A stretch of 64,000 nucleotides of DNA from contig DASWJS010000014.1 in NCBI GenBank assembly GCA_036397035.1, positions 36,014-100,013 on the forward strand, in the 5' to 3' direction. The stretch comes from Actinomycetota bacterium (lineage in GTDB: Bacteria > Actinomycetota > AC-67). The notes below the pieces were generated by a model. That model saw only the letters and a program-made list of their open reading frames with translations, did not search any database and was not told the DNA's origin. Below are positions 8,973-27,169 of this stretch, in pieces (positions within the stretch are counted from its first letter, which is position 1; every line of letters begins with the position of its first letter). A program made the position numbers and the translations under genes.

Positions 8973-9344
8973 TCACACCCACTCCAGGACCTTCTTCTTC
9001 CATGCGTAGAGCAGGCCGACAGCCAGGATGACCACGAACACGATCATCTCCACCAGGACCAGCCCCGCGTTGGGGAACCGCTCGAAGATCGTGGCGAAGG
9101 GGAAGAGGAACACCGCCTCGACGTCGAAGATCACGAACAGGAAGGCGTAGATGTAGTAGCGGATCTGGGTCTGGCTCCAGCCCTCGCCGACGGGGTCCAC
9201 GCCGCACTCGTAGGTCGTGTACTTCTCGGGCCGGGCGAAGGTCGGCCGCATGATCCGGTTGACCAGAAACCCGACGGCGACAAAGCCCGCGCCGGCCACC
9301 GCGAGCACGCCCAGAGTCCCGTATTGCCAGAAGTAATCCGTCAC
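8973..9344 (-). CDS. nuoA: NADH-quinone oxidoreductase subunit A
   Basis: 123 aa from GTG at 9344 (VTDYFWQYGTLGVLAV...YECGVDP...YIYAFLFVIFDVEAVFLFP). A GGAG Shine-Dalgarno lies 6 nt upstream. The N-terminal 32 codons of the track ORF are probably not translated. Confidence 0.8.
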   Translation of the reverse strand: MTDYFWQYGTLGVLAVAGAGFVAVGFLVNRIMRPTFARPEKYTTYECGVDPVGEGWSQTQIRYYIYAFLFVIFDVEAVFLFPFATIFERFPNAGLVLVEMIVFVVILAVGLLYAWKKKVLEWV

Positions 9345-9466
9345 CTGAACTCCCCGTTCGCGCGCTCGTGCTCGCACCCTTGTGAAGGCGCTCACGAGCG
9401 GCGCGCGGCGCATCGTATCGCAGCCACTCCGACCACCCAAAACGGTGGGAAGCTAGGTGGCGTCGG

Positions 9467-9694
9467 TCAGAGCAACTCGATGAACTCCTGCCTGCTTATC
9501 CCTGCGACACGCAGAATCCCGTGAAGCGTGCCGGTCTTGAGATCGCGGTTGTGCATGGGGACGGACACGGCTTTCTTCAGCGCGGGGTGCACCATGATGT
9601 GGTGGGAACCGCGAACCCGATCCAGGCGCCAGCCCTTCTTCTCCAGCACCCGGACGAGTTCCCTCGGCTTGACCGCCGGCAGCTTCGCGCTCAC
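9467..9694 (-). CDS. hicA: HicA-family toxin (mRNA interferase, YcfA-like)
   Basis: PRELVRVLEKKGWRLDRVRGSHHIM...VPMHNRDLKTGTLHGILRVAGI fits the HicA fold and motif. Probable GTG at 9694 overlapping the hicB stop (GTGA). Confidence 0.7.
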   Translation of the reverse strand: MSAKLPAVKPRELVRVLEKKGWRLDRVRGSHHIMVHPALKKAVSVPMHNRDLKTGTLHGILRVAGISRQEFIELL

Positions 9695-9918
9695 GAAGCG
9701 CGAATCACGACTCGATCCCGCTCGCTCGCGGGCGGGTCCCACCCCTGCCCGCGCATGGCATCGAGGTATCCCTCGATAGCCTCTTTCGCCATCGCCAGAG
9801 CGTCGTCACGACTCTCCCCCTCCGTGACCACATCCGGCAACTCAGGGACGAGAACGGTGAACCCACCCTCGTCTTGGGGAACGAGGATGACCTCGTACTC
9901 GCGCTCCCTAGCCATCAC
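9691..9918 (-). CDS. hicB: HicB-family antitoxin
   Basis: 75-aa acidic protein (EYEVILVPQDEGGFTVLVPELPDVVTEGESRDDALAMAKEAIEGYL) of the UPF0150/HicB-like type. Overlaps hicA. Confidence 0.65.
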   Translation of the reverse strand: MMAREREYEVILVPQDEGGFTVLVPELPDVVTEGESRDDALAMAKEAIEGYLDAMRGQGWDPPASERDRVVIRAS

Positions 9919-9982
9919 TCGATACCTCCTTCTCAGTCATTAGAGTCCGCCATCCGATTGGCTGCTCATCCTTGAGTCGTCC

Positions 9983-10016
9983 GCCCAACAGCCCGTTGCA
10001 CGCGCAAGTTAGACCG
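9983..10016. repeat. intergenic repeat element copy 1 (attC-like: GCCCAAC ... TTGCACGCGCAAGTTAGAC)
   Basis: 20/22-nt identity with 10604-10625. On the gene strand it reads GTCTAAC(TAA stop)-TTGCGCGTGCAAC-GGGCT-GTTGGGC. It lies between the DUF2442 stop and the hicB start. Confidence 0.4.
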
Positions 10017-10260
10017 CACTCGTGGCGCTCGCCCGCTCGTGGAGTGCCTCCGGAGCGATATCAGCGCCATTCGGCCACGTGATCGTGCCTGCTTCCACGA
10101 AGAATCGCTTGAAGAACTCGGGAGATCGCAGCGGTTCGAACATCGGTCCTGAGAGCCAGTCCTCGAAGTCCACGATCGAGTCCAAACCATCGTTGAACAC
10201 AACCCTGATCCGGAATCCGTCCACGTATTCAGCCGCGGTCACGAGCGGGAGCGGTTCCAT
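10009..10260 (-). CDS. DUF2442-family small protein
   Basis: 83 aa ending ..WPNGADIAPEALHE, typical of DUF2442. Immediately downstream of the DUF4160 gene, which is the usual pairing. Confidence 0.55.
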   Translation of the reverse strand: MEPLPLVTAAEYVDGFRIRVVFNDGLDSIVDFEDWLSGPMFEPLRSPEFFKRFFVEAGTITWPNGADIAPEALHERASATSAV

Positions 10261-10269
10261 GGGAGCATT

Positions 10270-10530
10270 CTACTGGAGCGGCTCGATCCGTTCGAGGCGT
10301 TCCCCGCCTCGCGCCCGATCCCAATCGGCGGCCAGTTCCACAGCGTGCGCCCGCGCCCACTCCTCGATGAGTCTCTTGGCGGTCCGAGACCGGAGCTGGC
10401 CAGCCAGCGGCGTTCCGTCGAAGGTGAAGGTCGCCTGTTCGCCCTGATGCTCCGCATGAAAATGGGGTGGAGCGTGGTCTCGGTAATACATGCGGATCAC
10501 GATTCCGAAGAACGTCGAGATGACGGGCAT
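10270..10530 (-). CDS. DUF4160-family small protein
   Basis: 86 aa with MPVISTFFGIVIRMYYRDHAPPHFHAEHQGEQATFTFDGTPL, the DUF4160 signature. Forms a putative TA-like pair with DUF2442. Confidence 0.55.
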   Translation of the reverse strand: MPVISTFFGIVIRMYYRDHAPPHFHAEHQGEQATFTFDGTPLAGQLRSRTAKRLIEEWARAHAVELAADWDRARGGERLERIEPLQ

Positions 10531-10558
10531 GCGGCGATCGTATCTCGCCGCAGGGACG

Positions 10559-10627
10559 GCCTAACGACCCGGCGCGTCAGCGGCCGGATGCCGCAGGCGG
10601 ACGGCCCCTTGCACGCGCGAGTTAGCT
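10559..10627. repeat. intergenic repeat element copy 2 (attC-like, ~69 bp)
   Basis: On the gene strand it reads AGCTAAC(TAA stop)-TCGCGCGTGCAAGGGGCC, then an imperfect hairpin GGCCG..CGGCC, then GTTAGGC. It lies between the Cys-rich gene stop and the DUF4160 start. Confidence 0.4.
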
Positions 10628-10993
10628 GGCAATCTCCGTGCTGATCGCATCGGGTTCCAGGATAAGGGCATGGGGCATCCAGCAGTCCGATTTCTCTGTG
10701 CCCACTGCGTGTCCTTTCCGGCAGAGGACGTTGGGACCGTCCAACCCGTCGAGACCACAGCACCCGTTCAGTCGGGAGGGGTCGTCCGTGCGTCGGATGT
10801 TCCTCGCATCGTGAAGATTCATGATTACTTTGCCCTCGGTTCCCGTGAAGAACGAGCCGTCCGAGAGAACGTAGCGTCCTTCGGGTACATGGGGTGCGTT
10901 ATCTGCATCGGATAGAGCGGTGAGATCGGCAAGCTCTTCGAGATGGCTCGAGAGCTCCGTCTTGCACAGCTGGCAACGAAACATGTGGCTCAT
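10622..10993 (-). CDS. hypothetical Cys/His-rich (probable Zn-binding) protein
   Basis: 123 aa with CQLC..(68)..GCCGLDGLDGPNVLCRKGH..DCWMPH. I do not recognise the family. The TAA stop is embedded in a repeated intergenic element. Confidence 0.4.
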   Translation of the reverse strand: MSHMFRCQLCKTELSSHLEELADLTALSDADNAPHVPEGRYVLSDGSFFTGTEGKVIMNLHDARNIRRTDDPSRLNGCCGLDGLDGPNVLCRKGHAVGTEKSDCWMPHALILEPDAISTEIAS

Positions 10994-11309
10994 CCGATGT
11001 TAGCCGGGTTAACTCCTTCTTGAAAAGACCGGGTTAACACCCGTCTGAGCAGATAACACCTAGTCGACGCGGGTCGAGGAGTCAGCTTGCCATGATTGAC
11101 TTGCAAGAACCCTCGCGCGAAGCCCTTTGGACATTTGTCCAGAGCGAGCTATGCGCTCGCGCCCAGCGGTTCGAGCGGGCGGGCGGGGATCGCCGGGAGC
11201 GGGGACTCGGTGGGCCCCTCGAACGGCGCGCCAGCGACGTGAGAGGGAGGACCGCAGTGAGCGAACTCGGTGACGCGGTCACGCGTCGCCGAGTTCGGGA
11301 ACGGGTCCC

Positions 11310-11332
11310 CGCGGAGGCGAGCCACGCCCGCC
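11310..11332. repeat. 23-bp perfect direct repeat, copy A (CGCGGAGGCGAGCCACGCCCGCC)
   Basis: Identical 23-mer at 14241-14263. Lies ~45 nt 3' of the 408-aa gene in a 380-bp noncoding stretch. Confidence 0.7.
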
Positions 11333-11375
11333 TGCGGACCCTCAGAGGAGAGGCAACCCGGCAGGCTCGCGCAGG

Positions 11376-12602
11376 TCAGGACTCTACGACGACGTCGATC
11401 CGGCTCGCGCGCAAAGGCAGGAAGCCAAGGAACGCGTACGTGCGCCGGATGGCGATCACCGTGGTGTCGTACCGATCTGCGAGCGCGCGCGCGGCGGCGG
11501 CCGGGCTCTTGCCCCGCGCGAGCGCCGGTCCGTCCTCGATCCCGATCAACTCGACTGTGGCGGTGACCGTGGCCTCGATGCGGCCGCGCCGCAGGACGGG
11601 CTCCTCCGGCCGAAGCGACCCCTCGACGATCGCATGCGCCTCAGGCAGCAGCGGCTCGAGCTGCTCGAGCGCCCGGTCTTCGAGCGCGCGAACGCTGAAG
11701 GCCGCCGCTCGCGCGTTGACGCGGGCCGTGACCGACGGCGTCGAGCACGAGTAGCAGTCGACCGCGTTCCATGCCTGCCCGTCCCGGATCGTGACCTCGC
11801 GATCGAGCATGATCGTGCCGTCGAACCCCTTGCGCGCGGCCGCGCGCTCGGTCCGGTCCCGGATCGCCGTCGTCGCCGCCTCGCGCGCGGCACGGCGAGC
11901 GGCTTCGACGTCGGGCACGCGAACCAGCGGTACGCCCGCGTCGCGTCCGCCCGTGATCGACTTCAGGTTCGCCGTGTACACGTTCACGCCGTCGAGCTGC
12001 TTGACCTCGGTGTACTCGACGTAGTGCTCGCCGGCGTGATTCGCGTCGTCGCCCGCCTCCAGCGCGACGATCGGAACCTCGAGCGAGCGCAGATGGCACT
12101 CCTCGGCGACGATGAAGAGCAGGAAGATGGGGAAGCCGCACCGCTCGCGCGTCGGCGAGATGCGCGCCGCCGCGGTGGTTCGGTACAGGACGTCGCCCGC
12201 CTCCAAGCACCGCCGATCGTTGTTCTTCGCATGCTTCGCGCACGACCCGACGATTGTCCCGGCCGGCACCAGGCTCGACGGCGCCTCCTGCTTCCGCTCC
12301 GAACACCCCCCGAACGGCTGGTTGCACGTGCGCGGACAACAGAAGAAGATCACCGACCCCTCCGCCCGAGCCGCCGTCGAGCGCCCCGTCGGCTCGACGG
12401 GGCGGGTCACGCTCGACGCCGCGGTCACCTCCGCCGCCGGCACCGACACGCGCGTCTGCACCTGCGCGGGAGCCGCCAGCACGACCGTCGCCCGCGGCGC
12501 GAGCGCGAACATCCCCGCCAGCGTCAGCACCACCGTGATGGCAGCCGCAAGCCAAAGAATCCGCGACTTCGTCCCCGTCCGAGCGTCCGAGTTCTCTGGC
12601 AT
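11376..12602 (-). CDS. hypothetical membrane-anchored Cys-rich protein
   Basis: 408 aa with an N-terminal TM/signal anchor (ILWLAAAITVVLTLAGMFALA) and a Cys-rich region. Overlapping ORFs in other frames look like Arg/His/Asp-rich frame artefacts. Function unknown; gene model uncertain. Confidence 0.35.
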   Translation of the reverse strand: MPENSDARTGTKSRILWLAAAITVVLTLAGMFALAPRATVVLAAPAQVQTRVSVPAAEVTAASSVTRPVEPTGRSTAARAEGSVIFFCCPRTCNQPFGGCSERKQEAPSSLVPAGTIVGSCAKHAKNNDRRCLEAGDVLYRTTAAARISPTRERCGFPIFLLFIVAEECHLRSLEVPIVALEAGDDANHAGEHYVEYTEVKQLDGVNVYTANLKSITGGRDAGVPLVRVPDVEAARRAAREAATTAIRDRTERAAARKGFDGTIMLDREVTIRDGQAWNAVDCYSCSTPSVTARVNARAAAFSVRALEDRALEQLEPLLPEAHAIVEGSLRPEEPVLRRGRIEATVTATVELIGIEDGPALARGKSPAAAARALADRYDTTVIAIRRTYAFLGFLPLRASRIDVVVES

Positions 12603-12676
12603 CGAGCCGTTACCCGGCGCGCTGTGTGCGGTTGAAGCGGACCGAGATAGACAACGAGCGCAACGGTGCGTTCAAG

Positions 12677-12910
12677 CTACCGCGCCTCGTCGAGTGGCCT
12701 GACGGCGATCACATCGCGTTCTTCGACTGGACGCACGTCATCGATCCTCAGAGTCAGCACGGCCTGCGTTCTTCCCGATCCCGTCACGAACTCGACCTCC
12801 AAGCCGTCGGGTTCGTAACGCTCGACCACAGTGCCAAGGTCACCACGACGGAGCCCGTGCTCCGGGACGTCTCGAGCAAGGACAACGGTCTGAAGCAGTT
12901 CATATCTCAT
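12677..12910 (-). CDS. DUF4926-family small protein
   Basis: 77 aa (MRYELLQTVVLARDVPEHGLRRGDLGTVVERYEPDGLEVEFV..) matching the DUF4926 pattern. 4-nt overlap with the upstream DUF6883 gene. Confidence 0.5.
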   Translation of the reverse strand: MRYELLQTVVLARDVPEHGLRRGDLGTVVERYEPDGLEVEFVTGSGRTQAVLTLRIDDVRPVEERDVIAVRPLDEAR

Positions 12911-13245
12911 GGCCTCGCTCCTGGGAACGCCGTCACGAACCTCGGGGCATCCTCACCCGTAAGGATAATCCAGACCGACACGACCTGAGCCTCCTTTCCG
13001 CCAGGCCCGCGCAACGGTCCGCTAACGGTGTATTTCCGGCCAAACGCCGTCTCTTCCATTGAAGCGATTCCCTCGACAGCGTGCATCCTGAGATCAGCGA
13101 GCAAGGTTCCCCACGCCTCGGGCGTATAGCCGAGAGCTGCGAAGAACTTCGCCTTGAACTGCCCAACTGGATGCGACGAAGACAGAAGGTAATCGCGTAC
13201 CTTGCGAGGCTCAACGACGGCCTCGTTGGCACCTTCGAACGACAT
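12907..13245 (-). CDS. DUF6883-family protein
   Basis: 112 aa with DYLLSSSHPVGQFKAKFFAALGYTPEAW, a DUF6883-like region. This family is commonly paired with DUF4926. Confidence 0.5.
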   Translation of the reverse strand: MSFEGANEAVVEPRKVRDYLLSSSHPVGQFKAKFFAALGYTPEAWGTLLADLRMHAVEGIASMEETAFGRKYTVSGPLRGPGGKEAQVVSVWIILTGEDAPRFVTAFPGARP

Positions 13246-13472
13246 CGCGCGACTCTACAGCGCCGCAGGGACACAACAGACCGACGGATCGGTTCACAGC
13301 ACGTGTCGACAGCGAGGACCAATCACGAGGTGGCTGTTTGGCCGCTTGCGCGCTTCGGTCGGTCGGCGTTCAACCGATCGTGCTCGTCACTACCCACTCC
13401 TTCTCTTCCAACATCTTTGGGACCTCCGTCAACGCGCGGCTGAGCGACGCTTCAATCCCCCCACGCTCAAAG

Positions 13473-13700
13473 CTAGCGAGCGTTTGAGGGCGGGTCACCG
13501 TCGTCCATGTTCTTGCGTACTGGGTTCCAGTAGAGGACGTTTAGCGTGGCGAGCGCGGCGAAGGCAAGCGCCTCCCACTGACGCGTGACGAAGAACCCGA
13601 TCACTCCGAACACCGCAAAGACCGAGCCGAGCACGACCTGCCACGTAGCGTGCCTTCCGACGCGCCGGCGGACCTTTTCGTCCCTCGGTTCCCTGAACAT
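13473..13700 (-). CDS. hypothetical small membrane protein (2 TM)
   Basis: 75 aa with a basic N-terminus and two hydrophobic helices. No recognisable family. Confidence 0.35.
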   Translation of the reverse strand: MFREPRDEKVRRRVGRHATWQVVLGSVFAVFGVIGFFVTRQWEALAFAALATLNVLYWNPVRKNMDDGDPPSNAR

Positions 13701-13806
13701 CAGCCGCTCGTTCCAATCCGCGGTCGCACGGCGTGCTCGCGTGAGCTATCCGTCACCGGAGAACATGCCCACGAGCGGTCGGAGCCCCTCGGGCTGCCTC
13801 ATCGAG

Positions 13807-13953
13807 CTATCGCGCAACGTGGCGCACCTCACCAAGCACTTGCCCGTTGGTCTCGCCGCGGAGCTTGAGGGGCATCAGGATCTGCGTGCCTGCATTTCCC
13901 GGTGCCCTGAAAGCCATCGGTGCGGTTGGGTGCTCGTCAAGCAGTACGCGCAC
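13807..13953 (-). pseudogene. DUF5615-like (Mut7-C/PIN-like) remnant, truncated
   Basis: GTG overlapping the DUF433 stop gives VRVLLDEHPTAP..., the start of the usual DUF5615 partner of DUF433. It stops after about 48 codons (full length is ~110 aa), and the downstream frames are broken. Confidence 0.3.
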
Positions 13954-14165
13954 GCGGAACTGCGCCCTCCAGGGCATCGAGAGCCTCGTTGACCTGCTCA
14001 CGAGTCACGGACGGAAACTGCTTCAGGAACTCCTCGACGCTGTAATCGTCTTCGAGATAGTCGATCAGGTTCCGAAGCGGCACCCGCGTGCCGACGAACA
14101 CCGGAGTCCCGCCGAGGATCTCCGGGTCAGAGTGCACGACCGAACTCAGATCACCCACGCCGTGA
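13937..14165 (-). CDS. DUF433-family protein (antitoxin-like)
   Basis: C-terminal ~75 aa of the track ORF (SDPEILGGTPVFVGTRVPLRNLIDYLEDDYSVEEFLKQFPSVTREQVNEALDAL) is a typical DUF433. Start codon is ambiguous (GTG or TTG around 14150-14190). Confidence 0.55.
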
Positions 14166-14240
14166 TCATACCGCCTCGAGTCGCCCTGCCTACCGCATTC
14201 GCCAGCGTCAGAGCGTATTCCCGCGAGGATCGTCGCAACA

Positions 14241-14263
14241 CGCGGAGGCGAGCCACGCCCGCC
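14241..14263. repeat. 23-bp perfect direct repeat, copy B
   Basis: Identical to 11310-11332. Lies immediately 3' of the GT2 gene stop (14272) at the right-hand edge of the small-gene island. Confidence 0.7.
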
Positions 14264-14271
14264 CGCATGGC

Positions 14272-15126
14272 TCAGATGATGGGCGGACGGCCCGCGCGGG
14301 TCATGCGGGCGACGGTGCTCCAGCGGATGGGTTTGCGCTCGCCCGCCGGCTCGCGAAAGCCGGCGCCGAAGCCGGCGAGGAGCGCGCGCGCGTCGGCGAG
14401 GGAGCGGGCTCGGGCGAGCGTGAGGACCATCCAGACCGCCACGTAGATCGGCGCGAGGAGCCACGGCAGGCGGCGGCGGGCGAGGAAGACGCGGTTCCGA
14501 GCAGTCGTGCGATGGAACCAGGCGTGGCGCTCGGCCGGCTCGGACGGGTGCGCCACCGCGAGGTCGCCCGCGTAGCGAACGGCATAGCCCGCGTCGAGCG
14601 CTCGCCAGGCGAGGTCGGTGCCCTCGTGGCCGAAGTAGAACTCCTCGGGATATCCGCCGACCTCGGCGAACACCGAGGCCCGGATGGCGCACGCGCCTTC
14701 CAGGAACGTCGTCGCATCGCTCGACCGGCGCGGGTCCCCCGCGCGCAGTCGGGGAACGTGACGGCGCTGGCCCGGCCGACCGCTCGGGTCGTCGATGCGA
14801 AACGAGACGATGCCGAGGCGCGGCTCGGCATCGAACCGGGACAGCGCCCGCGCGACGAGGTCGCGATCGGGATAGGACGTGTCGTCGTCCAGGAAGAACA
14901 GGACGTCGGCGCGAACGGCCTCGACGGCTCGGTTGCGCGCCGCGGCCGGGCCGACGTTCTCCGGTAGCGCGAGCACCCGCACGCCCGCGCCTACCGCCGG
15001 CGGCTCGCACCCGTTGCAGACGAGCCAGACCTCGGGCGAGCCCTCTTGCGCGAGCGCCGAATCCAGCGCGCGCGCGACCTCGGCGGGCCGGGACCCAGCC
15101 GTCAGGACGATGCAGGCCGCGTTCAC
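14272..15126 (-). CDS. glycosyltransferase family 2
   Basis: 284 aa from GTG at 15126 (GTGA overlap with the upstream stop). GT-A motifs: CIVLTAGSRP..., FFLDDDTSY (DxD), GGYPEEFYFGHEGTDLAWR. Confidence 0.75.
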   Translation of the reverse strand: MNAACIVLTAGSRPAEVARALDSALAQEGSPEVWLVCNGCEPPAVGAGVRVLALPENVGPAAARNRAVEAVRADVLFFLDDDTSYPDRDLVARALSRFDAEPRLGIVSFRIDDPSGRPGQRRHVPRLRAGDPRRSSDATTFLEGACAIRASVFAEVGGYPEEFYFGHEGTDLAWRALDAGYAVRYAGDLAVAHPSEPAERHAWFHRTTARNRVFLARRRLPWLLAPIYVAVWMVLTLARARSLADARALLAGFGAGFREPAGERKPIRWSTVARMTRAGRPPII

Positions 15127-15896
15127 CGCAGGCGCTTCGAGGCGAGGATCATCACGAAGTGACCGCCCGCGATCAGCGCCGTCAGGAAGAAGTAGAAGGC
15201 GACGAGGGGCAGGGTCACGTCCACGTGCCACCACATCGCGTCGAACACGCGCAGCACGCCGACGATCAGGGAGGCTTCGATCGCGCCGGTCAGTCGATAG
15301 AGGGGGAGCATCCGCGCGAGCCGCCGCGCCGCGCCCAGCCCACCCGAAGGAACCGACACGGCCTCCTCGTCGGCCGCGACCGGCAGGCCCGCCTTCGCGC
15401 GCGCGACGTGCACGAGGTCGGTCTCGACCTTGCCGACGAAGTGGAACAACGCCGCGCCCATGCCCAGCCCGATCCACGACGGGCTCCACACGCGCGCCGC
15501 GTAGATGCCGAGCGCCGCGAAGAACGACCCCTCGACGAGGTAGTGGCCGAGCCGGTCGATGAAGATGCCCGTCGCGCCGGTCGTCTGACGCCAGCGCGCG
15601 ACTTCGCCGTCGGAGCAATCCAGCAGCAAGTAGAGCTGGATCAGGGCCATGCCCTCGATCGGCGCGGTGGGGCCTTGCAGCGCGAACAGCAGCGCGCCGC
15701 ACACGCCGACGACGGCCATCGCGAAGGTGATGACGTTCGCGCTGAGGCCCGTGCGCACGAGCAGCCACGTGACGTAGATGCTCACGCGCCGGCCGTAGAG
15801 GCGGCCGGCCCAGTGCTCGCCGGAGTAGCGCGCGATCAGCCCGGGGGGCTGGCAGACGGCGCGCAGCTCAGCGATCGAAGGATTCGAGGAAGGCAT
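15123..15896 (-). CDS. CDP-alcohol phosphatidyltransferase family protein
   Basis: 257-aa polytopic protein with the family motif D-x2-DG-x2-AR-x8-G-x3-G-x3-D-x3-D (DCSDGEVARWRQTTGATGIFIDRLGHYLVE). Confidence 0.8.
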   Translation of the reverse strand: MPSSNPSIAELRAVCQPPGLIARYSGEHWAGRLYGRRVSIYVTWLLVRTGLSANVITFAMAVVGVCGALLFALQGPTAPIEGMALIQLYLLLDCSDGEVARWRQTTGATGIFIDRLGHYLVEGSFFAALGIYAARVWSPSWIGLGMGAALFHFVGKVETDLVHVARAKAGLPVAADEEAVSVPSGGLGAARRLARMLPLYRLTGAIEASLIVGVLRVFDAMWWHVDVTLPLVAFYFFLTALIAGGHFVMILASKRLR

Positions 15897-16923
15897 CCAC
15901 TCGGCTCCGCACCTCGTCGTGGCCGAGGCCGAGGTGCTCCAGGATCGTGTAGCGGTCTGGCCGGGTCTCGGGCGCCTTGACCACCGCGGAGGTGAAGTCG
16001 TCGGCGCCTAGGCCGAGGTCGCCCGGCAGCCGCGGCACGCCGTAGCGGCGCAGGCACGCGTCGAGGTCCGCGATGCCGGGGTCCGCTCGCAGGAAGCTCG
16101 CGAAGAGCGCCCCGACGGCCACTTGCTCGCCGTGCAGCCCGGTCCCGGGGAACAGCGCGTCGATCGCGTGGGAGATCTCGTGGCACGCGCCGCTGCACGG
16201 CCGGCTGCTGCCGGCGATTCCCATCGACAGGCCGCTCAGGATCAGTGCCTCGGCGAGCGCGGTCAGGAACGTCTCGGAGTCGATCGCGTCGGTCCGGCGC
16301 ACGACCGCCGCCGAAGCCGAGCGCGCGAGCGACACCGCGAGCCCGTCGATCGGCTCGCGCCGCTCGCGCGCGGCAAGCTCCCAGTCGGCGACGGCCGACA
16401 GGTTGGACACCGCGTCGCCGATGCCCGATCGCGTGTGCCGCTCGGGGCTGCGCGTGACGTAGTCCAGGTCCACGACGACCGCGATCGGAAGCTGCACGCC
16501 GTAGGAGCCCTTGCGGTCGCCGGTGCGAAGGACGGCGACCGGCGAGGCGAGCCCGTCGTGCGTGAGCGTCGTGGCGACCGAGACGAACGGCAACCCGACG
16601 GCGCTCGCCGCGTACTTGCCGACGTCGAGCGTGCCGCCGCCGCCGATGCCGACGACCGCGTCGTAGAACGAGCCGCGGAGCTGCTCGGCGAGGCGATGCG
16701 CCGACTCCATGCTGCCGCCTTCGACGGTGATCAGCTCGGCGCTCGGCAGGCTGCCCGCGAGGTGCGCGGCGATCTGCTCGCCCATGCCTTCGCCGACCGC
16801 GATCGCGACGCTGCCGCCCGCGGAGATGCGCCCGTCGGCCAGCAGCCGCGCGAGCCCTTCCACCGCGCCGCGCCGGATGTCCACCGCGATCGGAGCCGGG
16901 ATCGTGCGCGCGAGCAGCGGCAT
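15868..16923 (-). CDS. egsA: glycerol-1-phosphate dehydrogenase [NAD(P)+]-like (G1PDH/EgsA/AraM family, DHQS-like fold)
   Basis: 351 aa. GIGGGGTLDVGKYAASAVGLPFVSVATTLTHDGLASPVAVL matches the G1PDH signature (GGG..DV.KYAA...PFISVPT.ASHDGIASP). Metal-ligand His residues are present near the C-terminus (CHEISHAID, GLHGEQV). Confidence 0.7.
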   Translation of the reverse strand: MPLLARTIPAPIAVDIRRGAVEGLARLLADGRISAGGSVAIAVGEGMGEQIAAHLAGSLPSAELITVEGGSMESAHRLAEQLRGSFYDAVVGIGGGGTLDVGKYAASAVGLPFVSVATTLTHDGLASPVAVLRTGDRKGSYGVQLPIAVVVDLDYVTRSPERHTRSGIGDAVSNLSAVADWELAARERREPIDGLAVSLARSASAAVVRRTDAIDSETFLTALAEALILSGLSMGIAGSSRPCSGACHEISHAIDALFPGTGLHGEQVAVGALFASFLRADPGIADLDACLRRYGVPRLPGDLGLGADDFTSAVVKAPETRPDRYTILEHLGLGHDEVRSRVDAFLESFDR

Positions 16924-17687
16924 CAGCGCGCCTCCCGCGCCGGGGCCGGCGCGGGCGCGATGCCCAGCGTGCGCGCGCGCTCCAAGTCGGCCGGCGTGTC
17001 TACCTCCACCCAGTCGAGCCCTCCCACCGACACGGTACGCACTTCTCCTCCCGCGTCTGCGTAGGCCTGGAACCCGTCCTCGTAGTACAGGGACGGGTCG
17101 GCCCGCCAGGTCCGCTCGAGCGCCTCCGCCAGGTCCGCAGCCGCGGACGGCTCGATCAAGGTGACGCCGATGTACTCGCCGTGCGCGCGGGCGGGCTCCA
17201 TCTCCTTCGTGATGCGCGCGAGCCGCCCGTCCTCCAGCACGACCTTCATCTCCTCCTCGGCCAGCACCTTGACGTCGTCGAGCGCGATCAGCACGCCGGG
17301 CCCGCGCGCGGCGAGCATCCGCTGCTCGACCGCGACCGGATGGACGGTGTCGCCGTTGACGACCATCGCGCCGCGCGCGAAGTGCTCGCGCGCGAGCCAG
17401 AGCGAGTAGGCGTTGTTCCAGTCGAGCGCGCGGTCGTTCGCGACGAGGCCGAGCCGTACGCCGTGCGCGGCCTCCAGGTCGCTCACGCGCCGCTCGATCG
17501 CCTCCGCCGCGTAGCCGACGACGACGAAGACCTCCTCGATCCCCGCGGCGCGAAGGTTCGACAGCGCGACGTCCAGGATCGTCCAGCCGCCACCGATCGG
17601 CGCGAGCGCCTTCGGGATGTCCGCGGTCAGCGGGCGCAGGCGCTTGCCCTCACCGGCCGCGAGCACGATCCCGGCCAGGTCGCTCAC
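16923..17687 (-). CDS. nucleotidyltransferase (NTP_transferase family; putative polyol-phosphate cytidylyltransferase)
   Basis: 254 aa from GTG at 17687 (GTGA overlap with the upstream stop). N-terminus GIVLAAGEGKRLRPLTADIPKAL is the sugar/polyol-phosphate nucleotidyltransferase G-x-G-x-R motif. Size and fold resemble IPCT/MobA-like enzymes. Confidence 0.7.
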   Translation of the reverse strand: MSDLAGIVLAAGEGKRLRPLTADIPKALAPIGGGWTILDVALSNLRAAGIEEVFVVVGYAAEAIERRVSDLEAAHGVRLGLVANDRALDWNNAYSLWLAREHFARGAMVVNGDTVHPVAVEQRMLAARGPGVLIALDDVKVLAEEEMKVVLEDGRLARITKEMEPARAHGEYIGVTLIEPSAAADLAEALERTWRADPSLYYEDGFQAYADAGGEVRTVSVGGLDWVEVDTPADLERARTLGIAPAPAPAREAR

Positions 17688-18517
17688 ACGCCCTCCGCCG
17701 GCCGGCTCTTCAGGATCCGCTTGACCAAACGCCGGGTCGCGCGAGAGGCGAGGAAGAGCTTCGCCACGATCGCGATCTCGAACGCCAGCAGCAGCGCCGC
17801 GGCGGCGAGCGTGACGACGGCCACCTGCCCGGTGGCGGGACCCAGGATGAACACGAACATCTGGAACTCGATGCCGCTGAACAGGTGCGAGCGGATGCGC
17901 CGGCGCCCCAGCGCGTTGCGAACCCGCGACAGCAACGGGAAGCGGCGGGCGACCGCGCGCTGTATGCGGTCCTCCTCGCCGCGTTCGGCCCCGATCCCGC
18001 CGGCTTTGAGGCCGGCCTCGCGTCGCGCGTCGCGCACCTGTTTGCGGAGCCGCGCCTGCAACGACTCGATCTTCAGCGCGTCCACGTACCGCAGCATGTC
18101 CAGGAAGATGACGAGCATCCCGAGGTACAGGTACCGCTCGTCGCCGGCGAGCCGGAACCGTCCGCCCATCAATGCGAGCGTGACCGCGAGCACGCGGATG
18201 CGATCGAAGACGTAGTCGAGCCACTCGCCGAAGTACGACCCCGTTCCCGCCAGGCGCGCGACCTTGCCGTCGACGCAATCCATCGTGAAGCTCGCGTGAT
18301 AGAGCAGCGCCCCCACGATCAGCGCGGTCGCCGAACCGCTCCAGAAGAACCACGCGGACGCGAGGCCCAAGGCGAGCGAGGCGGCTGAGATCTGGTTCGG
18401 CGTGAGCCTGGTGTAGTTCACCGCGACCAGGCTGAGGCGGACGGCGACCGGGTCCACCAGGATCACGGTCCACCACGAGTCGCGGGGCTTGATCGCACGC
18501 GTGCGCGCGTCGGCCAT
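17684..18517 (-). CDS. CDP-alcohol phosphatidyltransferase family protein (second copy)
   Basis: 277-aa membrane protein with DCVDGKVARLAGTGSYFGEWLDYVFDRIRVL (D-x2-DG-x2-AR...G...D-x3-D). Confidence 0.75.
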   Translation of the reverse strand: MADARTRAIKPRDSWWTVILVDPVAVRLSLVAVNYTRLTPNQISAASLALGLASAWFFWSGSATALIVGALLYHASFTMDCVDGKVARLAGTGSYFGEWLDYVFDRIRVLAVTLALMGGRFRLAGDERYLYLGMLVIFLDMLRYVDALKIESLQARLRKQVRDARREAGLKAGGIGAERGEEDRIQRAVARRFPLLSRVRNALGRRRIRSHLFSGIEFQMFVFILGPATGQVAVVTLAAAALLLAFEIAIVAKLFLASRATRRLVKRILKSRPAEGV

Positions 18518-18546
18518 CGTGTAGTGCGCGCGCGAGCGCGTCGTGC

Positions 18547-19359
18547 TCACTCCTCGTCCTCTGCCTCGTCCTGGAAGGCGGTGTAGAGCGGAAGGACCTC
18601 CTCGGTCGGACCGTCGGCTCGGACGACGCCGTTCTGCAGCCAGATCGTCCGCTCGCAGTAACGCGTCAGGTCGCTCTCGCGGTGCGACACCAGCACCAGC
18701 GTGCGTCCCTCCTTGGAGAGCTTGTCCTCCATCACTTTCACCGACTTGCGCTTGAAGCGCCGGTCGCCGACGGCGAACACTTCGTCGAGCAGCATCACGT
18801 CCGACTCCACCTGCGCCACGATGCTGAACCCGAGCCGCCCCTTCATGCCCGACGAGAAGTGCTTGAGCGGCATGTCCATGAACCCCTTCAAGCCGGAGAA
18901 GCGCACGATCTTGCGAAAGCGCGCGTCGATCTCCTTCTCGGTCAGGCCCATGATCATCCCCGACAGGTAGACGTTCTCGCGCGCGGTGAGATCGCCCGAG
19001 AAGCCGGCGCCGAGCTCGATCAGCGGCGCGACGCCGCCGTGTACGAGGACCTCGCCCTCGTCCGGGTAGAGCACGCCGGCGATCAGCTTCAGCAGCGTGC
19101 TCTTGCCGGACCCGTTCGAGCCGATCAGCCCGACCGACTCGCCCTTGCGGATCGTGAAGGTGACGTTGCGCAGGGCCCAGAACCGGTCGGCCTTCTGGAA
19201 CCCCCGGATGAAGTGGTCGCGGATGCGCGTCTTCCGGCGGCGGTTGACGTGGAACCAGATGCCGACGTCCCGGCATTCGATGATGGGCGGCGCGTCGGAC
19301 GGCGGCGCGTCGGGACGCCAGTCCTTCGTCACGGTTCCCGTCTGCTCGGCGTCGCTCAT
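18547..19359 (-). CDS. ABC transporter ATP-binding protein (TagH/Wzt-like exporter ATPase)
   Basis: 270 aa from MSDAEQT... with Walker A GSNGSGKST, ABC signature FSSGMKGRLGFS and Walker B VMLLDEVFAVGD. Overlaps the permease stop. Confidence 0.85.
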   Translation of the reverse strand: MSDAEQTGTVTKDWRPDAPPSDAPPIIECRDVGIWFHVNRRRKTRIRDHFIRGFQKADRFWALRNVTFTIRKGESVGLIGSNGSGKSTLLKLIAGVLYPDEGEVLVHGGVAPLIELGAGFSGDLTARENVYLSGMIMGLTEKEIDARFRKIVRFSGLKGFMDMPLKHFSSGMKGRLGFSIVAQVESDVMLLDEVFAVGDRRFKRKSVKVMEDKLSKEGRTLVLVSHRESDLTRYCERTIWLQNGVVRADGPTEEVLPLYTAFQDEAEDEE

Positions 19360-20264
19360 ATCTCTTTCAACACCCGCGGTTCGAGCCTGGTGAACAGCAG
19401 GTACCCGATCACCAGGATAAGCGCGCACCCGATCGCCGAATAGCCGACCGTCAGCCACGAGTCGAACTGACTCACCGTCGCGACGGCGCCGCCGCCGCGC
19501 GGGCGCATCGTCCATCCCGACCACGCGCTGCGGTGCAGCGTGAGGATTCCCGTCATCGGGTTGAGCCGGTAGAGCGTCTGCGCGAGCGAGGACGCGCGCT
19601 CGTCCACCAGGATCAGCGGGTAGAGCACCGGCGAGAGGTAGAACCACGCGCGAAGCACCGGACGCGAGACGCGCTCGAGATCGCGCAGCAACGTGTTCGC
19701 CGCGCTGAGCCCGAGCGACAGGCCGGTCAGCAGCATCAACTGCAGCACGATCGCCAGCGGCAGGTAGAACATGTACAGCGAGGGCCGCAGCCCGAAGGCG
19801 AATGCGACCGGCACCAGCACCGAGATCGTGATGAGGAACTCGATGCCCTTCGTGAGCACGAGCTGCATCGGGTAGATCTCGCGCGGGAGGTCGCCGATCT
19901 TGCTGATGAGCTTGGAGTTTCCGCGAAGCGTGCGCATCGAGCCGGTGAAGCTGGCGCTCATCCATTGCCAGGCGAGGATGCCCGACAGGATGTAGGGCGG
20001 GAACGGCTGCACGCGGCCGAGCCGTCCGATCAGGCCGAAGACCAGCCAGTACACGCCCGTCATCAGCAGCGGCTCCAGGACCGACCAGAAGTAGCCGAGC
20101 GTGGAGCCCTCGTACTTCACCGACAGGTCGGTTCGGATCATCCGTTGCAGGACGGCTCGGCGCTTGCGGATGCGCTGGATGCGGGTGCCGAGCGTCAGGG
20201 AGGTGGTCACGACGGCACATGATATCGGCGGTGTCGCCGAACCCGAACTTGCCCGTTCGGGCAC
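19356..20264 (-). CDS. ABC-2 type transporter permease (TagG/Wzm-like)
   Basis: 302 aa with 6 predicted TM helices and an N-terminal R/K-rich segment (RIQRIRKRRAVLQRMIRTDLSVKYEGSTLGYFW), typical of polysaccharide/teichoic-acid ABC-2 permeases. Confidence 0.8.
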   Translation of the reverse strand: MPERASSGSATPPISCAVVTTSLTLGTRIQRIRKRRAVLQRMIRTDLSVKYEGSTLGYFWSVLEPLLMTGVYWLVFGLIGRLGRVQPFPPYILSGILAWQWMSASFTGSMRTLRGNSKLISKIGDLPREIYPMQLVLTKGIEFLITISVLVPVAFAFGLRPSLYMFYLPLAIVLQLMLLTGLSLGLSAANTLLRDLERVSRPVLRAWFYLSPVLYPLILVDERASSLAQTLYRLNPMTGILTLHRSAWSGWTMRPRGGGAVATVSQFDSWLTVGYSAIGCALILVIGYLLFTRLEPRVLKEI

Positions 20265-20286
20265 GCCCTGCGCGCCGGGAGCGCGT

Positions 20287-21258
20287 TCATCGCGTCGCGC
20301 GGGCGCGCCCGAACAGGAATCCCGCGCCCCAACCGACGTGCATGACGGGCAGCACGACGGGCAGCAGGAACGCCGCCGGCGCGCGGCGTGCGAGCGCGAG
20401 GCCCGTCGCGCTCAGCAGGAGCACGCCCGCGTAGACGACCGGCAAGGCGAGCGCCGCGCCGCGAAGGGGCGTGAACGCCAGGCCGGCCGAGGCGACCAGG
20501 CCGAGCACGAGCGCGACCGGCGCGGCCTGGCGCGGCCGCAGCGCGCGCCAGCTCTTGCGGAACGTCCGTCGCTTCCACGCGCCCGACCCCCAGTACTGAC
20601 GCCAGAGCGCGCCGAGGGAGGCGCGCGGCCGGTAGGTCACGCGCAAGTCGGGGTGGAAGTAGACGCGGCCGCCGCTGGCCCGGATGCGGTAGTTCAGCTC
20701 CGAGTCCTGGTTGCGCAGCAGGCGCTCGTCGAAGTAACCGACGCGTTCGAGCGCCGCTCGCCGGAACGTCCCGAGGAAGACGGTGTCCACCTCGCCGGGC
20801 GGCCCGCCCGTGCGGAAGCGCGCGTCCCCGACGCCGATCTTGATGCTCATGCCGAGCGCGATCGCGCGCTGCATCGTCGTGGCGCCCTCCGCGGCCTGGA
20901 TGCCGCCCACGTTGTCGGCGCCCGTTTCCATCAGCAGCTCGACCGCGCGGCGGACGTAGCCCTCGGGGAAGCGGACGTGGCCGTCGCACCGCACGATCAC
21001 CTCGCCGGTCGAGCGGCGGATCGCGGCGTTCAGGCCCGAGGGCGTGTGACCGGACGGATTCTCGACGATCGCCACGCGCGGGTCCGCCGCCGCGATGCGC
21101 TCGAGCATCGCGCGCGAGCCGTCGGCGGACGCGCCCTCGGCTGCGATTACCTCGAACGGTCGCGGATAGTCCTGCGCGAGGATGGACCCGAGCGACTCCT
21201 CCAGGGTCGCCTCCTCGTTGCGGACCGGCATCACGATGGACAGCGTCGGCCAGTCCAT
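20287..21258 (-). CDS. glycosyltransferase family 2 with C-terminal TM anchor (polyprenyl-phosphate glycosyltransferase-like)
   Basis: 323 aa from MDWPTLSIVMPVRNEEATL... (GT-A N-terminus, DxD region, C-terminal hydrophobic helices). The N-terminal part of the track ORF is frame artefact. Confidence 0.8.
   Translation of the reverse strand: MDWPTLSIVMPVRNEEATLEESLGSILAQDYPRPFEVIAAEGASADGSRAMLERIAAADPRVAIVENPSGHTPSGLNAAIRRSTGEVIVRCDGHVRFPEGYVRRAVELLMETGADNVGGIQAAEGATTMQRAIALGMSIKIGVGDARFRTGGPPGEVDTVFLGTFRRAALERVGYFDERLLRNQDSELNYRIRASGGRVYFHPDLRVTYRPRASLGALWRQYWGSGAWKRRTFRKSWRALRPRQAAPVALVLGLVASAGLAFTPLRGAALALPVVYAGVLLLSATGLALARRAPAAFLLPVVLPVMHVGWGAGFLFGRARATR

Positions 21259-23693: not shown

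Positions 23694-23697
<4 letters not shown>
22231..23697 (-). CDS. nuoN: NADH-quinone oxidoreductase subunit N
   Basis: 488 aa from MSVPIQATPE... (FKVGAVPFHMWTPDVYQGAPT). ATG overlaps the nuoM stop (ATGA). The upstream part of the 926-aa track ORF is frame artefact. Confidence 0.9.

Positions 23698-27169
<3,472 letters not shown>

Follow-up and report, generated by a model that had tools for sequence, protein, structure and literature searches.

Toxin-antitoxin cassettes are known in chromosomal integrons (PMC4889954). In Actinobacteria, complete integrons were not found and CALINs are few (PMC9024848). Several families of toxin-antitoxin proteins have been described: dhiTA of Dickeya dadantii, for which toxicity and neutralisation were shown by experiment (PMC8198452); the DUF433/COG2442 family, validated as the VapB10 antitoxin of COG2442/PIN VapBC10 (PMC3834315); and DUF6883, a BECR RNase with DUF4926 as its partner, which is a computational assignment (bioRxiv 10.64898/2026.08.28.747851).

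The window analysed here, a 64-kb stretch of DNA, contains an islet of genes, all on the minus strand, between nuoA and the GT2 gene of a cell-envelope operon. We consider it a likely case of composite accessory DNA, ~4.8 kb long and acquired horizontally, made up of an integron cassette part and a 2.9-kb block in at least two steps. It would be ordinary accessory DNA, though integron cassettes are rare in the phylum Actinomycetota.

Borders, composition and relatives of the islet

8973-9344, nuoA, the neighbour on the nuoA side
9445-14271, minus strand, the whole inserted islet (~4.83 kb), from the GT2 stop codon to the conserved nuoA hairpin and promoter
11262-11297, no strand assigned, 16-bp inverted repeat from a repeat search, 94% complementary with a 4-nt loop, in the 382-nt spacer
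14272-15126, the GT2 gene, last gene of the cell-envelope operon

The borders were set by alignment with two related metagenome contigs, L016 and L023, and the right edge is good to ~25 nt. Between the GT2 stop and the nuoA start there are 132 nt in L016 and 126 nt in L023, which answers the question raised by the sequence-only reading of whether nuoA lies directly beside the GT2 gene elsewhere. The nuoA-side hairpin (CCCACC-GTTTT-GGGTGG) and a -10-like TACGAT align with both contigs, and L023 keeps the entire envelope operon in the same gene order. Islet proteins are encoded in none of 80 related loci and were not found in three related MAGs, in keeping with the earlier view of an accessory island rather than core genome.

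The suspected difference in composition is also clear: GC3 is 0.75 in the islet genes and 0.95 in the flanks (Mann-Whitney p = 9e-6). The small islet genes range from 0.67 to 0.84 and the 19 flanking genes from 0.895 to 0.97, and among the islet genes only the 408-aa gene is host-like (0.90). TAA or TAG stops end 5 of the 11 islet reading frames. Coding density is ~77%, and the gaps earlier estimated at ~380 and ~230 bp measure 382 nt (10994-11375) and 227 nt (13246-13472). The inverted repeat in the larger gap may be a terminator or operator.

From the GC3 contrast, the short GT2-nuoA spacing in L016 and L023 and the absence from the 80 loci, the region 9445-14271 is best read as a ~4.8-kb insertion. 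That it is instead an ancestral core region, deleted in the relatives examined, is scarcely credible: although the empty-site relatives are distant (62-63% identity in GT2, 79-86% in NuoA), the flanks have a far higher GC3, islet genes often end in TAA or TAG, homologs of islet genes are present in unrelated phyla as well as in cassette arrays, and more distant outgroups likewise lack the islet. This distance means that the timing and number of insertion events stay inferred. The assemblies with the islet are all 100% identical in sequence and so may stem from one population.

Among related loci, insertions recur at the polyprenyl-synthase/nuoA junction. L090 and L092 carry an RHH+PIN VapBC pair there that is unrelated to the islet, and L055, L063, L070 and L085 have other small inserts at the same junction upstream of nuoA.

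Integron cassettes next to nuoA

9467-9694, minus strand, HicA toxin, 75 aa, predicted mRNA interferase (Pfam HicA_toxin, E 3e-20, profile 2-58 of 58)
9691-9915, minus strand, HicB antitoxin, 74 aa (Pfam HicB_lk_antitox, E 5e-8)
9983-10014, minus strand, truncated attC relic ending the DUF4160/DUF2442 unit (R'' GTCTAAC, 5' stem half, R' GTTGGGC)
10009-10260, minus strand, DUF2442 protein, 83 aa, DhiA-like antitoxin (Pfam DUF2442, E 2e-14)
10270-10530, minus strand, DUF4160 protein, 86 aa, DhiT-like toxin (Pfam DUF4160, E 3e-16)
10559-10627, minus strand, complete 69-nt integron attC (R'' AGCTAAC ... R' GTTAGGC), overlapping the TAA stop of the Cys/His gene
10622-10993, minus strand, cassette gene of a Cys/His-rich protein, 123 aa, no Pfam family
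11030-11043, minus strand, R'-like GTTAACC (11038-11032), probable 5' boundary of the Cys/His cassette

The complete attC scores 63.3 bits (E 1.2e-13) with model R2, which was trained solely on six attC sites of a foreign array, L100, with the islet site unseen; the runner-up in the window reaches 16.9 bits (E 0.079). The alignment contains compensatory changes in 8 of the 14 stem pairs. The L100 array follows the textbook chain rule at 5/5 junctions, R' of one attC and R'' of the following one being perfect reverse complements, and a second model, R1, recovers six attCs in an unseen array (L102). The window holds no other complete attC of the same family, and model scans returned no full attC of that family upstream of the Cys/His cassette. 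The R'-like box found there, a GTTAACC that occurs again 25 nt downstream, corresponds to GGGTC-GTTAACT directly upstream of the L100 homolog of the Cys/His gene. The 123-aa protein itself has a beta-tent (Yippee/Mis18/CULT/MsrB-like) fold.

The DUF4160/DUF2442 unit has the toxin first, as in dhiTA (PMC8198452), with TACGAT 6 nt ahead of the DUF4160 ATG. The matches to NCBIfam toxin DhiT (E 7e-13) and antitoxin DhiA (E 2e-7) both fall under the equivalog cut-offs. This pair thus has an experimentally tested relative, contrary to the earlier statement that it and DUF6883/DUF4926 had no experimentally established function; for the latter pair the statement is dated as well, since a recent computational assignment makes it a BECR RNase toxin and its immunity protein. 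One of the shared intergenic repeats already suspected is a 25-nt repeat (22/25 identical) that spans the TAA stops of the DUF2442 and Cys/His genes and aligns with the 5' half of the complete attC (Smith-Waterman 35 vs 16.5 +/- 2.5 for shuffles). The middle ~37 nt of the DUF2442-side copy are deleted; its covariance-model score is just 9 bits, and it would not be called alone. Its R'' and the preceding R' (GTTAGGC), read as reverse complements, differ at 1 nt.

hicB and hicA share a 4-nt GTGA overlap. HicA has a GSHH motif, seen in its sequence, and a GC3 of 0.84, and HicB consists of the N-terminal HicB-like domain only, with a Shine-Dalgarno-like GAAGGAGG upstream of its gene. A covariance model scan recognised no attC at this unit.

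Judged from these sites, the nuoA-proximal 1.9 kb is best explained as deriving from integron gene cassettes. The suggestion of a cassette array therefore holds for the nuoA-proximal third, with one complete and one truncated attC.

It is improbable that the array is a still-active CALIN whose units are excised and reshuffled by an integron integrase that another part of the genome or a visiting element encodes, as part of a working actinobacterial integron system. The complete attC is well folded, the R'/R'' chain to the next unit is kept but for 1 nt, the genes all point the same way, as in a cassette array, and the window is a fraction of a larger genome. However, one attC only is intact and the second lacks its centre, further attCs of the family are missing from the window, and no IntI-like ORF was found in its 64 kb with an IntI1 sequence as the probe. 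The array is also set in the tail of a host operon instead of next to an attI/intI platform, and the survey of Actinobacteria cited above did not find complete integrons (PMC9024848). With no integrase nearby, the array is probably a fossil.

Slightly less probable still is a plain toxin-antitoxin hotspot, in which the modules arrived singly by illegitimate or homologous recombination at a permissive intergenic site upstream of nuoA and the attC is the baggage of one gene. The varied inserts at the junction agree with this, as do the lack of attC in HicBA and in the GT2-proximal block and the promoter-like motifs that the modules have of their own. Against it, the DUF4160/DUF2442 unit has R' at one end and a truncated copy of the same attC at the other, with an R'' that matches the preceding R' but for 1 nt, an arrangement that integron-type insertion produces. 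The sequences upstream of DUF6883 and DUF4160 also resemble each other, down to a GTTRRRY-like box.

The GT2-proximal block

11310-11378, minus strand, right arm of a ~65-nt direct repeat, a displaced, decayed GT2 3' end plus 26 nt downstream
11376-12602, minus strand, 408-aa protein, membrane anchor at the N-terminus followed by domains like baseplate-J/gp47, no Pfam family
12677-12910, minus strand, DUF4926 protein, 77 aa, putative immunity protein or antitoxin (Pfam DUF4926, E 4e-20)
12907-13245, minus strand, DUF6883/BECR-Tox3, 112 aa, predicted RNase toxin (Pfam DUF6883, E 2e-30, profile 5-109 of 110)
13473-13700, minus strand, ORF of a 75-aa miniprotein with two hydrophobic segments, GC3 0.82
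13807-13953, minus strand, internally deleted PIN_10/DUF5615 toxin remnant, 49 aa, aligning with an intact partner (L096:1000-1323)
13937-14158, minus strand, DUF433 (COG2442) antitoxin-type protein, 73 aa (Pfam DUF433, E 7e-18)
14165-14192, minus strand, sigma-70-like promoter match (TAGGCA, 16 nt, TATGAT), stopping 6 nt short of the DUF433 start codon
14241-14303, minus strand, left arm of the ~65-nt direct repeat, made up of the final 29 nt of GT2, the stop codon and 31 nt downstream

The second shared repeat is the ~65-nt direct repeat, which brackets the 2.9-kb block, with its right arm just past the stop of the 408-aa gene. It scores 53 by Smith-Waterman vs 22 +/- 3 for shuffles, and its 26-nt core has 1 mismatch between the arms; a 23-nt query from this core finds, with no mismatch, only these two arms in the window (chance expectation 0.01). 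The decayed GT2 copy lies between both blocks, and the event that brought the 2.9-kb block would therefore have come second. The nesting of direct repeats and the mixed composition suggest that insertion took place more than once, in line with the accretion already proposed. A covariance model scan recognised no attC anywhere in the block.

Pfam searches placed HicB/HicA, DUF4160/DUF2442, DUF6883/DUF4926 and DUF433 on the minus strand where the sequence-only reading had put them. The two start/stop overlaps are also real: that of the DUF6883 and DUF4926 genes is 4 nt, like that of hicB and hicA. TAGAGT lies 6 nt ahead of the DUF6883 ATG, and a 12-mer, GTCCCTGCGGCG, upstream of this gene is identical, at the same offset, at the DUF4160 gene. 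For the 75-aa miniprotein there is no Pfam family, and a match to 8xMP is weak (E 0.06).

The DUF433 start was revised: position 14158 is the more likely one, as it gives 73 aa as in homologs. The promoter-like match ahead of it is the only one in 9200-14400 (0.2 expected). In L096, a DUF433 protein 88% identical to that of the islet adjoins an intact PIN_10/DUF5615 protein of 107 aa (Pfam PIN_10 E 2e-8, DUF5615 E 1e-6). The DUF5615 remnant reported as truncated is real, but the gene (13953-13807, 49 aa) has been shortened by an internal deletion that stays in frame, with the first 8 and last 7 residues of such a partner retained and ~58 lost; a Pfam scan did not detect the remnant. The DUF433 antitoxin is thus, from its sequence context, seemingly an orphan with no working toxin, in a fourth module that has decayed.

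The 408-aa protein, membrane-anchored and baseplate-J-like, is an orphan. Its baseplate-wedge fold, the frequent fusion of DUF6883 to phage MuF proteins and the direct repeats including a target-gene 3' end, typical of integrase-mediated insertion, would suit what is left of a phage or integrative element that had entered the GT2 3' end, with the ~65-nt repeat as attL/attR, the baseplate-J-like gene and the phage-associated BECR toxin as its surviving genes, and the integrase and other genes deleted. We think this very unlikely: there is no integrase and no other phage gene, and the 408-aa gene is host-like in GC3 and encodes an N-terminal membrane anchor. Its family is tiny, with none seen in phage contexts, and its relatives occur in ordinary chromosomal settings, in L105 between AMP-binding and ferritin-like genes and in L101 adjoining a radC-like gene (a reading by eye).

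Proposed origin and comparison with known systems

In the composite reading that we prefer, the host is an uncultured soil Actinomycetota lineage, and insertion would have taken place just past the GT2 stop codon, upstream of the intact nuoA promoter. The first step may have brought the nuoA-proximal ~1.9 kb from an integron cassette pool as three units: the beta-tent Cys/His cassette with its complete attC, the DhiTA-like cassette with an attC now missing its middle, and HicBA missing its attC. In a second step, the 2.9-kb block (DUF433 and the deleted PIN, the two-TM miniprotein, BECR-Tox3/DUF4926 and the baseplate-J-like membrane protein) would have recombined at the GT2 3' end, duplicating ~65 nt.

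Three toxin-antitoxin modules look intact: HicBA, the DhiTA-like pair and BECR-Tox3/DUF4926. By what is known of these families, HicA (an mRNA-cleaving RNase), the DhiT-like toxin and the BECR-Tox3 RNase would each be checked by a partner encoded next to it. Each module apparently has its own promoter, TANNNT 6 nt before the start codon, a spacing that suggests leaderless mRNAs. On loss of islet DNA or expression, the stable toxin would be expected from family knowledge to outlive its antidote; such addiction would keep the islet in the population, and it may also abort phage infection.

The islet resembles small genomic islets at synteny breakpoints, known as flexible genomic islands, in its absence from relatives, its deviant composition, its place at a junction where neighbour genes vary by lineage and the direct repeats at its internal border. 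It differs from them in being very small, in having no tRNA target, integrase or transposase, and in carrying selfish two-gene modules rather than adaptive operons.

Compared with CALINs and sedentary integrons such as the Vibrio superintegron, it has the same small same-strand genes with attC after the gene, attC sites with R''/R' boxes, a bulged stem and a variable loop, an R' complementary to the R'' of the next unit, toxin-antitoxin pairs travelling as cassettes, and no adjacent intI. Unlike them, it has one complete and one truncated attC with the rest absent, it resides in an actinomycetotal host, and its array sits in a host operon tail and is broken by a non-cassette block.

Its modules share domain pairs and tight or overlapping spacing with the type II systems HicAB, DhiTA and VapBC10 (DUF433/PIN) and with BECR-Tox3/DUF4926. 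The gene order is also shared, toxin first in DhiTA and BECR-Tox3 and antitoxin first in DUF433/PIN, and the toxin domains are full length in 3 of the 4 islet modules. Differences are a short HicB that lacks a DNA-binding domain, matches to DhiT and DhiA well under equivalog cut-offs, and the internally deleted PIN toxin.

The cassette-borne Cys/His protein, finally, departs from known beta-tent proteins in its bacterial cassette setting, in having no Pfam match and in an invariant motif of its own (NGCCGLDGxDGxN...TEKSDCW). With Yippee/Mis18, cereblon CULT, MsrB and the RIG-I C-terminal domain it shares a CxxC pair and further Cys residues placed for a zinc site.

Gene content of the islet

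The DNA between nuoA and the GT2 glycosyltransferase gene is an acquired, composite islet of addiction modules, and the part nearest nuoA appears to be the decayed remains of an integron cassette array. Every domain named in the sequence-only reading was recovered by ORF listing and Pfam searches, on the minus strand and between the two flanking genes, and the two long spacers described there measure 382 and 227 nt.

Genes of the islet and its flanks (window coordinates; E-values from Pfam)
8973-9344: nuoA, flank gene at one side of the islet
9467-9694, minus: HicA toxin gene (HicA_toxin, E 3e-20)
9691-9915, minus: HicB antitoxin gene (HicB_lk_antitox, E 5e-8; 4-nt overlap with hicA)
10009-10260, minus: DUF2442 gene (E 2e-14; 9-nt spacer from DUF4160)
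10270-10530, minus: DUF4160 gene, first and in the toxin position (E 3e-16)
10622-10993, minus: Cys/His-rich protein, 123 aa
11376-12602, minus: 408-aa protein with an N-terminal hydrophobic helix
12677-12910, minus: DUF4926 gene (E 4e-20; 4-nt overlap with DUF6883)
12907-13245, minus: DUF6883 gene (E 2e-30)
13473-13700, minus: 75-aa protein with two hydrophobic segments
13807-13953, minus: 49-aa PIN_10/DUF5615 remnant ORF, from alignment with a 107-aa ORF of a soil contig (L096)
13937-14158, minus: DUF433 gene (E 7e-18; 73 aa from the GTG start used by homologs)
14272-15126: GT2 glycosyltransferase gene, flank gene at the other side

The public gene calls for this contig (L001) omit the Cys/His gene and have an antisense 120-aa ORF (window 12626-12988, plus strand) in place of DUF6883/DUF4926. 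These calls are an annotation error and would hide two modules: the minus-strand reading of DUF6883/DUF4926 is correct because its Pfam E-values are 1e-20 to 1e-30.

Three of the pairs are predicted toxin-antitoxin modules: HicBA, DUF4160/DUF2442 and DUF6883/DUF4926. HicA and HicB domains are encoded side by side, as in HicAB systems, with HicA covering the full Pfam profile and retaining the GSHH motif. DUF4160 is followed directly by DUF2442, the same toxin-first order as in dhiTA; in Dickeya dadantii, growth arrest by the DUF4160 protein of dhiTA is relieved by the DUF2442 protein, and the toxin/antitoxin complex represses the promoter (PMC8198452). The window pair falls below the NCBIfam equivalog cut-offs (49.1 bits vs 100 for DhiT, 31.4 vs 200 for DhiA) and is of the same superfamily as DhiTA, not an equivalog. 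The DUF6883 domain and the DUF4926 gene that follows it are arranged as in the pair described in a recent preprint, in which DUF6883 is assigned a BECR ribonuclease fold (BECR-Tox3), with DUF4926 as its conserved downstream partner (bioRxiv 10.64898/2026.08.28.747851); the window DUF6883 protein is a predicted BECR-Tox3 RNase and putative toxin. Across the islet, NCBIfam gave names solely to the DhiT/DhiA-like pair, and PADLOC returned no known defence system, its sole match being a weak HicA-like one (E 1.6e-4).

In VapBC10, a validated system, the antitoxin is a DUF433/COG2442 protein (PMC3834315). In the islet DUF433 is intact but has no intact PIN-like toxin partner. The truncated DUF5615 reported earlier at this position is undetected by Pfam, even at E 10, and was recognised instead through the intact partner of a close DUF433 homolog: in L096, an 88%-identical DUF433 is followed by an overlapping 107-aa ORF that scores above the Pfam thresholds for both PIN_10 and DUF5615. 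The remnant has the first 8 residues (VRVLLDEH) and last 7 (GEVRHVA) in common with this ORF, and about 58 residues between them are missing. Comparison with the L096 partner shows that the truncation is real and is an in-frame internal deletion, which takes out the PIN catalytic core and makes DUF433 an orphan antitoxin.

The islet also draws attention to two uncharacterised families, a cassette-borne beta-tent protein found across phyla and a very rare membrane-anchored, baseplate-J-like protein. The former is the Cys/His protein, which has 69 homologs in diverse phyla, no Pfam entry, an invariant NGCCGLDGxDGxN...TEKSDCW motif and an N-terminal CxxC. Its fold is predicted to be a beta-tent (Yippee/CULT/MsrB-like), and it is a putative zinc protein. 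The latter, the 408-aa protein, has baseplate-J/gp47-like domains and is a near-orphan with 9 matches among 1.84 billion representatives, and two members of its family match Pfam Baseplate_J. Its relatives lie in ordinary chromosomal settings and not in phage context. Because of these settings, and of its host-like codon usage, it is unlikely to be a prophage relic.

Acquisition at the GT2-nuoA junction

Mean GC3 is 0.754 for the ten island genes vs 0.947 (range 0.895-0.970) for 19 flanking genes (Mann-Whitney p = 9e-6). The 408-aa gene, with a GC3 of 0.90, is the only island gene that looks native. TAA and TAG are common stop codons among the island genes, and the flanking nuoA and GT2 genes stop at TGA.

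Sequence identity among all public copies of the island is 100%. In three related MAGs (NuoD 77-87% identical), a methyltransferase, UDP-glucose dehydrogenase or polyprenyl synthase gene lies directly upstream of nuoA, and a metagenome scan with NuoA as the query returned 80 loci, none of which encodes island proteins. Two empty-site relatives have nuoA directly adjacent to GT2. In L023 the whole envelope operon is syntenic, from polyprenyl synthase through GT2, with 126 nt between the end of GT2 and nuoA; the L016 spacer measures 132 nt. The proposal that this is an acquired addiction-module island and not core genome is thus borne out by a composite islet that is absent from relatives and deviant in GC3. 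The hairpin and -10-like box upstream of nuoA in L016 and L023 align with the window sequence just past hicA, and therefore the right edge of the insert lies near 9445 and the nuoA promoter region is intact.

Farther afield, polyprenyl synthase abuts nuoA in about 35 more distant loci. Two distant relatives carry a RHH+PIN VapBC pair on the same strand at this junction (L090:4263-4909 and L092:8093-8739), and in other relatives it holds a GNAT gene, a LiaF-like gene or HTH genes. The polyprenyl-synthase/nuoA junction is a recurrent insertion hotspot, because several loci carry different small inserts there. The approximately 7-kb envelope operon beside the islet (14272-21258, minus strand) encodes a GT2, an ABC transporter, CDP-alcohol transferases, a nucleotidyltransferase, an Fe-ADH-like protein and another GT2. 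It too looks like an insertion, probably an older one, since polyprenyl synthase is directly upstream of nuoA in most related loci (L006, L033, L036 and others). Upstream of polyprenyl synthase lies a second Proton_antipo_M (NuoN/Mrp-like) gene (about 22300-23800, minus strand), which points to a further nuo- or mrp-type cluster ending right before the region.

Two apparent breakpoints were considered and rejected. L002, a 1-kb contig from another sample (its positions 1-79 against window 9162-9240), is 99.8% identical up to 9161 in nuoA and then diverges. Strain-level recombination was considered, but the break coincides with 41 nt that show >90% conservation in every nuoA locus; a chimeric join or assembly is therefore more likely, and L002 was not used as evidence. 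A Logan contig break at 11202-11219, in the 382-nt spacer, was not taken as a polymorphism: other such breaks fall inside core genes.

Integron cassettes in the nuoA-proximal block

Two unrelated genes, DUF2442 and the Cys/His gene, each have their TAA stop codon within a copy of a 25-nt repeat. The closest Cys/His homolog (80% identical) is found in the foreign array L100, among successive small genes on one strand, and a 61-72-nt element follows each of them. At 5/5 internal junctions the 3' box (GTTRRRY-like) of one element is the exact reverse complement of the next 5' box, and such R'/R'' complementarity at junctions is a signature of integron attC x attC recombination. The elements have a common bulged stem with compensatory changes in 8/14 pairs. 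Scored with a covariance model trained on no sites but the six of L100, the window contains one complete site:

10559-10627, minus: complete attC of R''-L''...L'-R' architecture, downstream of the Cys/His gene (63.3 bits, E 1.2e-13)

This model gave no other noteworthy match in the 64 kb; the second-best, 41822-41886 (minus strand; 16.6-16.9 bits, E about 0.06-0.08), was rejected and is probably due to chance. A companion model returned 0 sites across the 590 kb of related loci on which it was not trained, and six sites, one per gene, in array L102, which was absent from the training set and also encodes a Cys/His homolog. Cys/His homologs occur in L100, L011, L102 and L013-L015, repeatedly as an integron cassette; the neighbours differ in every context, and no conserved partner gene was found among them. 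It follows from the L100-trained model, the L102 cross-validation and these array contexts that the Cys/His gene and its attC are an integron cassette. An R'-like GTTAACC upstream of the gene is the counterpart of the L100 cassette boundary.

The DUF4160/DUF2442 unit starts directly after the R' box (GTTAGGC) of the complete attC. It ends in GTCTAAC, a 5' stem half and a GTTGGGC box, with about 37 nt missing from the middle, and this end (9983-10014) appears to be a truncated attC that retains R'', the 5' stem half and R' and has a weak covariance score of 9 bits. The reverse complement of R' GTTAGGC, GCCTAAC, matches the next R'', GTCTAAC, at 6/7 positions, in keeping with the complementarity seen at the L100 junctions. 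The cassette array suggested earlier therefore probably holds for the nuoA-proximal part of the islet, with one complete and one apparently truncated attC. IntegronFinder 2 sets the CALIN threshold at ≥2 clustered attC sites, and with its second site at 9 bits the block is a candidate CALIN. For HicBA, no attC was found between the end of hicA and the host hairpin.

Seven intergenic regions folded as single-stranded DNA were no better than shuffles (z -0.8 to +0.2), so folding energy neither supports nor excludes attC or terminator roles, and the covariance models are decisive instead. The strict attC pattern RYYYAAC...GTTRRRY matched the L011 family only; the R'' boxes of the real sites depart from it at position 2, so that these were missed. 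L011:1-3100, an array in a Deltaproteobacteria MAG, encodes a Cys/His homolog among 64-nt attC-like sites of a different family, with a group II intron reverse transcriptase nearby, an arrangement also seen with attC-targeting introns. Just upstream of the window Cys/His gene, GTTAACCCGG occurs twice, 25 nt apart (11016-11043, minus strand), which could reflect either a doubled R' box or an operator.

The array does not sit beside an intI/attI/Pc platform, its neighbours being the nuo and envelope operons, and no IntI-like ORF was found in the 64 kb (best tblastn E 1.3, with an approximate IntI1 sequence as the query). Surveys of Actinobacteria have not found complete integrons and report few cassette clusters (PMC9024848, PMC4889954). 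It is conceivable, though we think it improbable, that integron cassettes do circulate among soil Actinomycetota and that the islet is a captured chromosomal cassette array. If so, an integrase not yet seen in this lineage, or one working across phyla, would bring toxin-antitoxin cassettes and a beta-tent zinc-protein cassette of wide distribution into operon tails, and the toxin-antitoxin cassettes would lock the array in place while its attC sites decay.

The GT2-proximal block and comparison with known elements

The final 29 nt of GT2, together with the stop codon and the 31 nt beyond it (14303-14241), have a second copy at 11378-11310, directly after the stop of the 408-aa gene; this copy is decayed and carries a 5-nt insertion. 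The repeat core is 26 nt with one mismatch, and a 23-nt query from it matches just these two sites in the window. Bracketed by the repeat are 2.93 kb with DUF433 and its remnant partner, the miniprotein, DUF6883/DUF4926 and the 408-aa gene. The most economical account is that this block was inserted at the 3' end of GT2, through one crossover or through site-specific recombination, which would have regenerated the end of the GT2 gene and pushed the old copy away. Since the displaced copy now borders the cassette block, the cassette block would have been there first.

The start codons of DUF433, DUF4160 and DUF6883 are each preceded, at a distance of exactly 6 nt, by a -10-like TANNNT, that of DUF433 belonging to the sole sigma-70-like match of the region. 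Leaderless transcripts are common in Actinobacteria, and this spacing would fit them. An identical 12-mer, GTCCCTGCGGCG, occurs at the same offset upstream of DUF4160 (10531-10557, minus strand) and DUF6883 (13246-13275, minus strand), followed in both by TANNNT, 6 nt and ATG; a GTTRRRY-like box is also common to the two flanks. GTCCCTGCGGCG could belong to a promoter, an operator or a cassette 5' end that the two units have in common, and the likeness of the flanks hints weakly that the DUF6883 unit is also from the cassette pool. A candidate attC at 13279-13311, the exact upstream border of this unit, was rejected (8 bits, not significant).

The islet is a clean, dated example of accretion: relatives show the empty site, and an internal duplication gives the order of two of the insertions. 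Selfish modules have here accumulated at the end of an essential operon and left the promoter that follows undisturbed. It bears on the failure of integrons to establish in Actinomycetota and on the survival of cassettes as fossils held by toxin-antitoxin modules. Absence from relatives and deviant composition are as in genomic islands; a tRNA target and an integrase or transposase are not seen, with no tRNA gene within the window and no recombinase domain among the island proteins (Pfam). Toxin-antitoxin gene clusters are common, and the islet as such is ordinary and of known kinds; a bona fide attC with a decayed sibling in Actinomycetota is a rare sighting.
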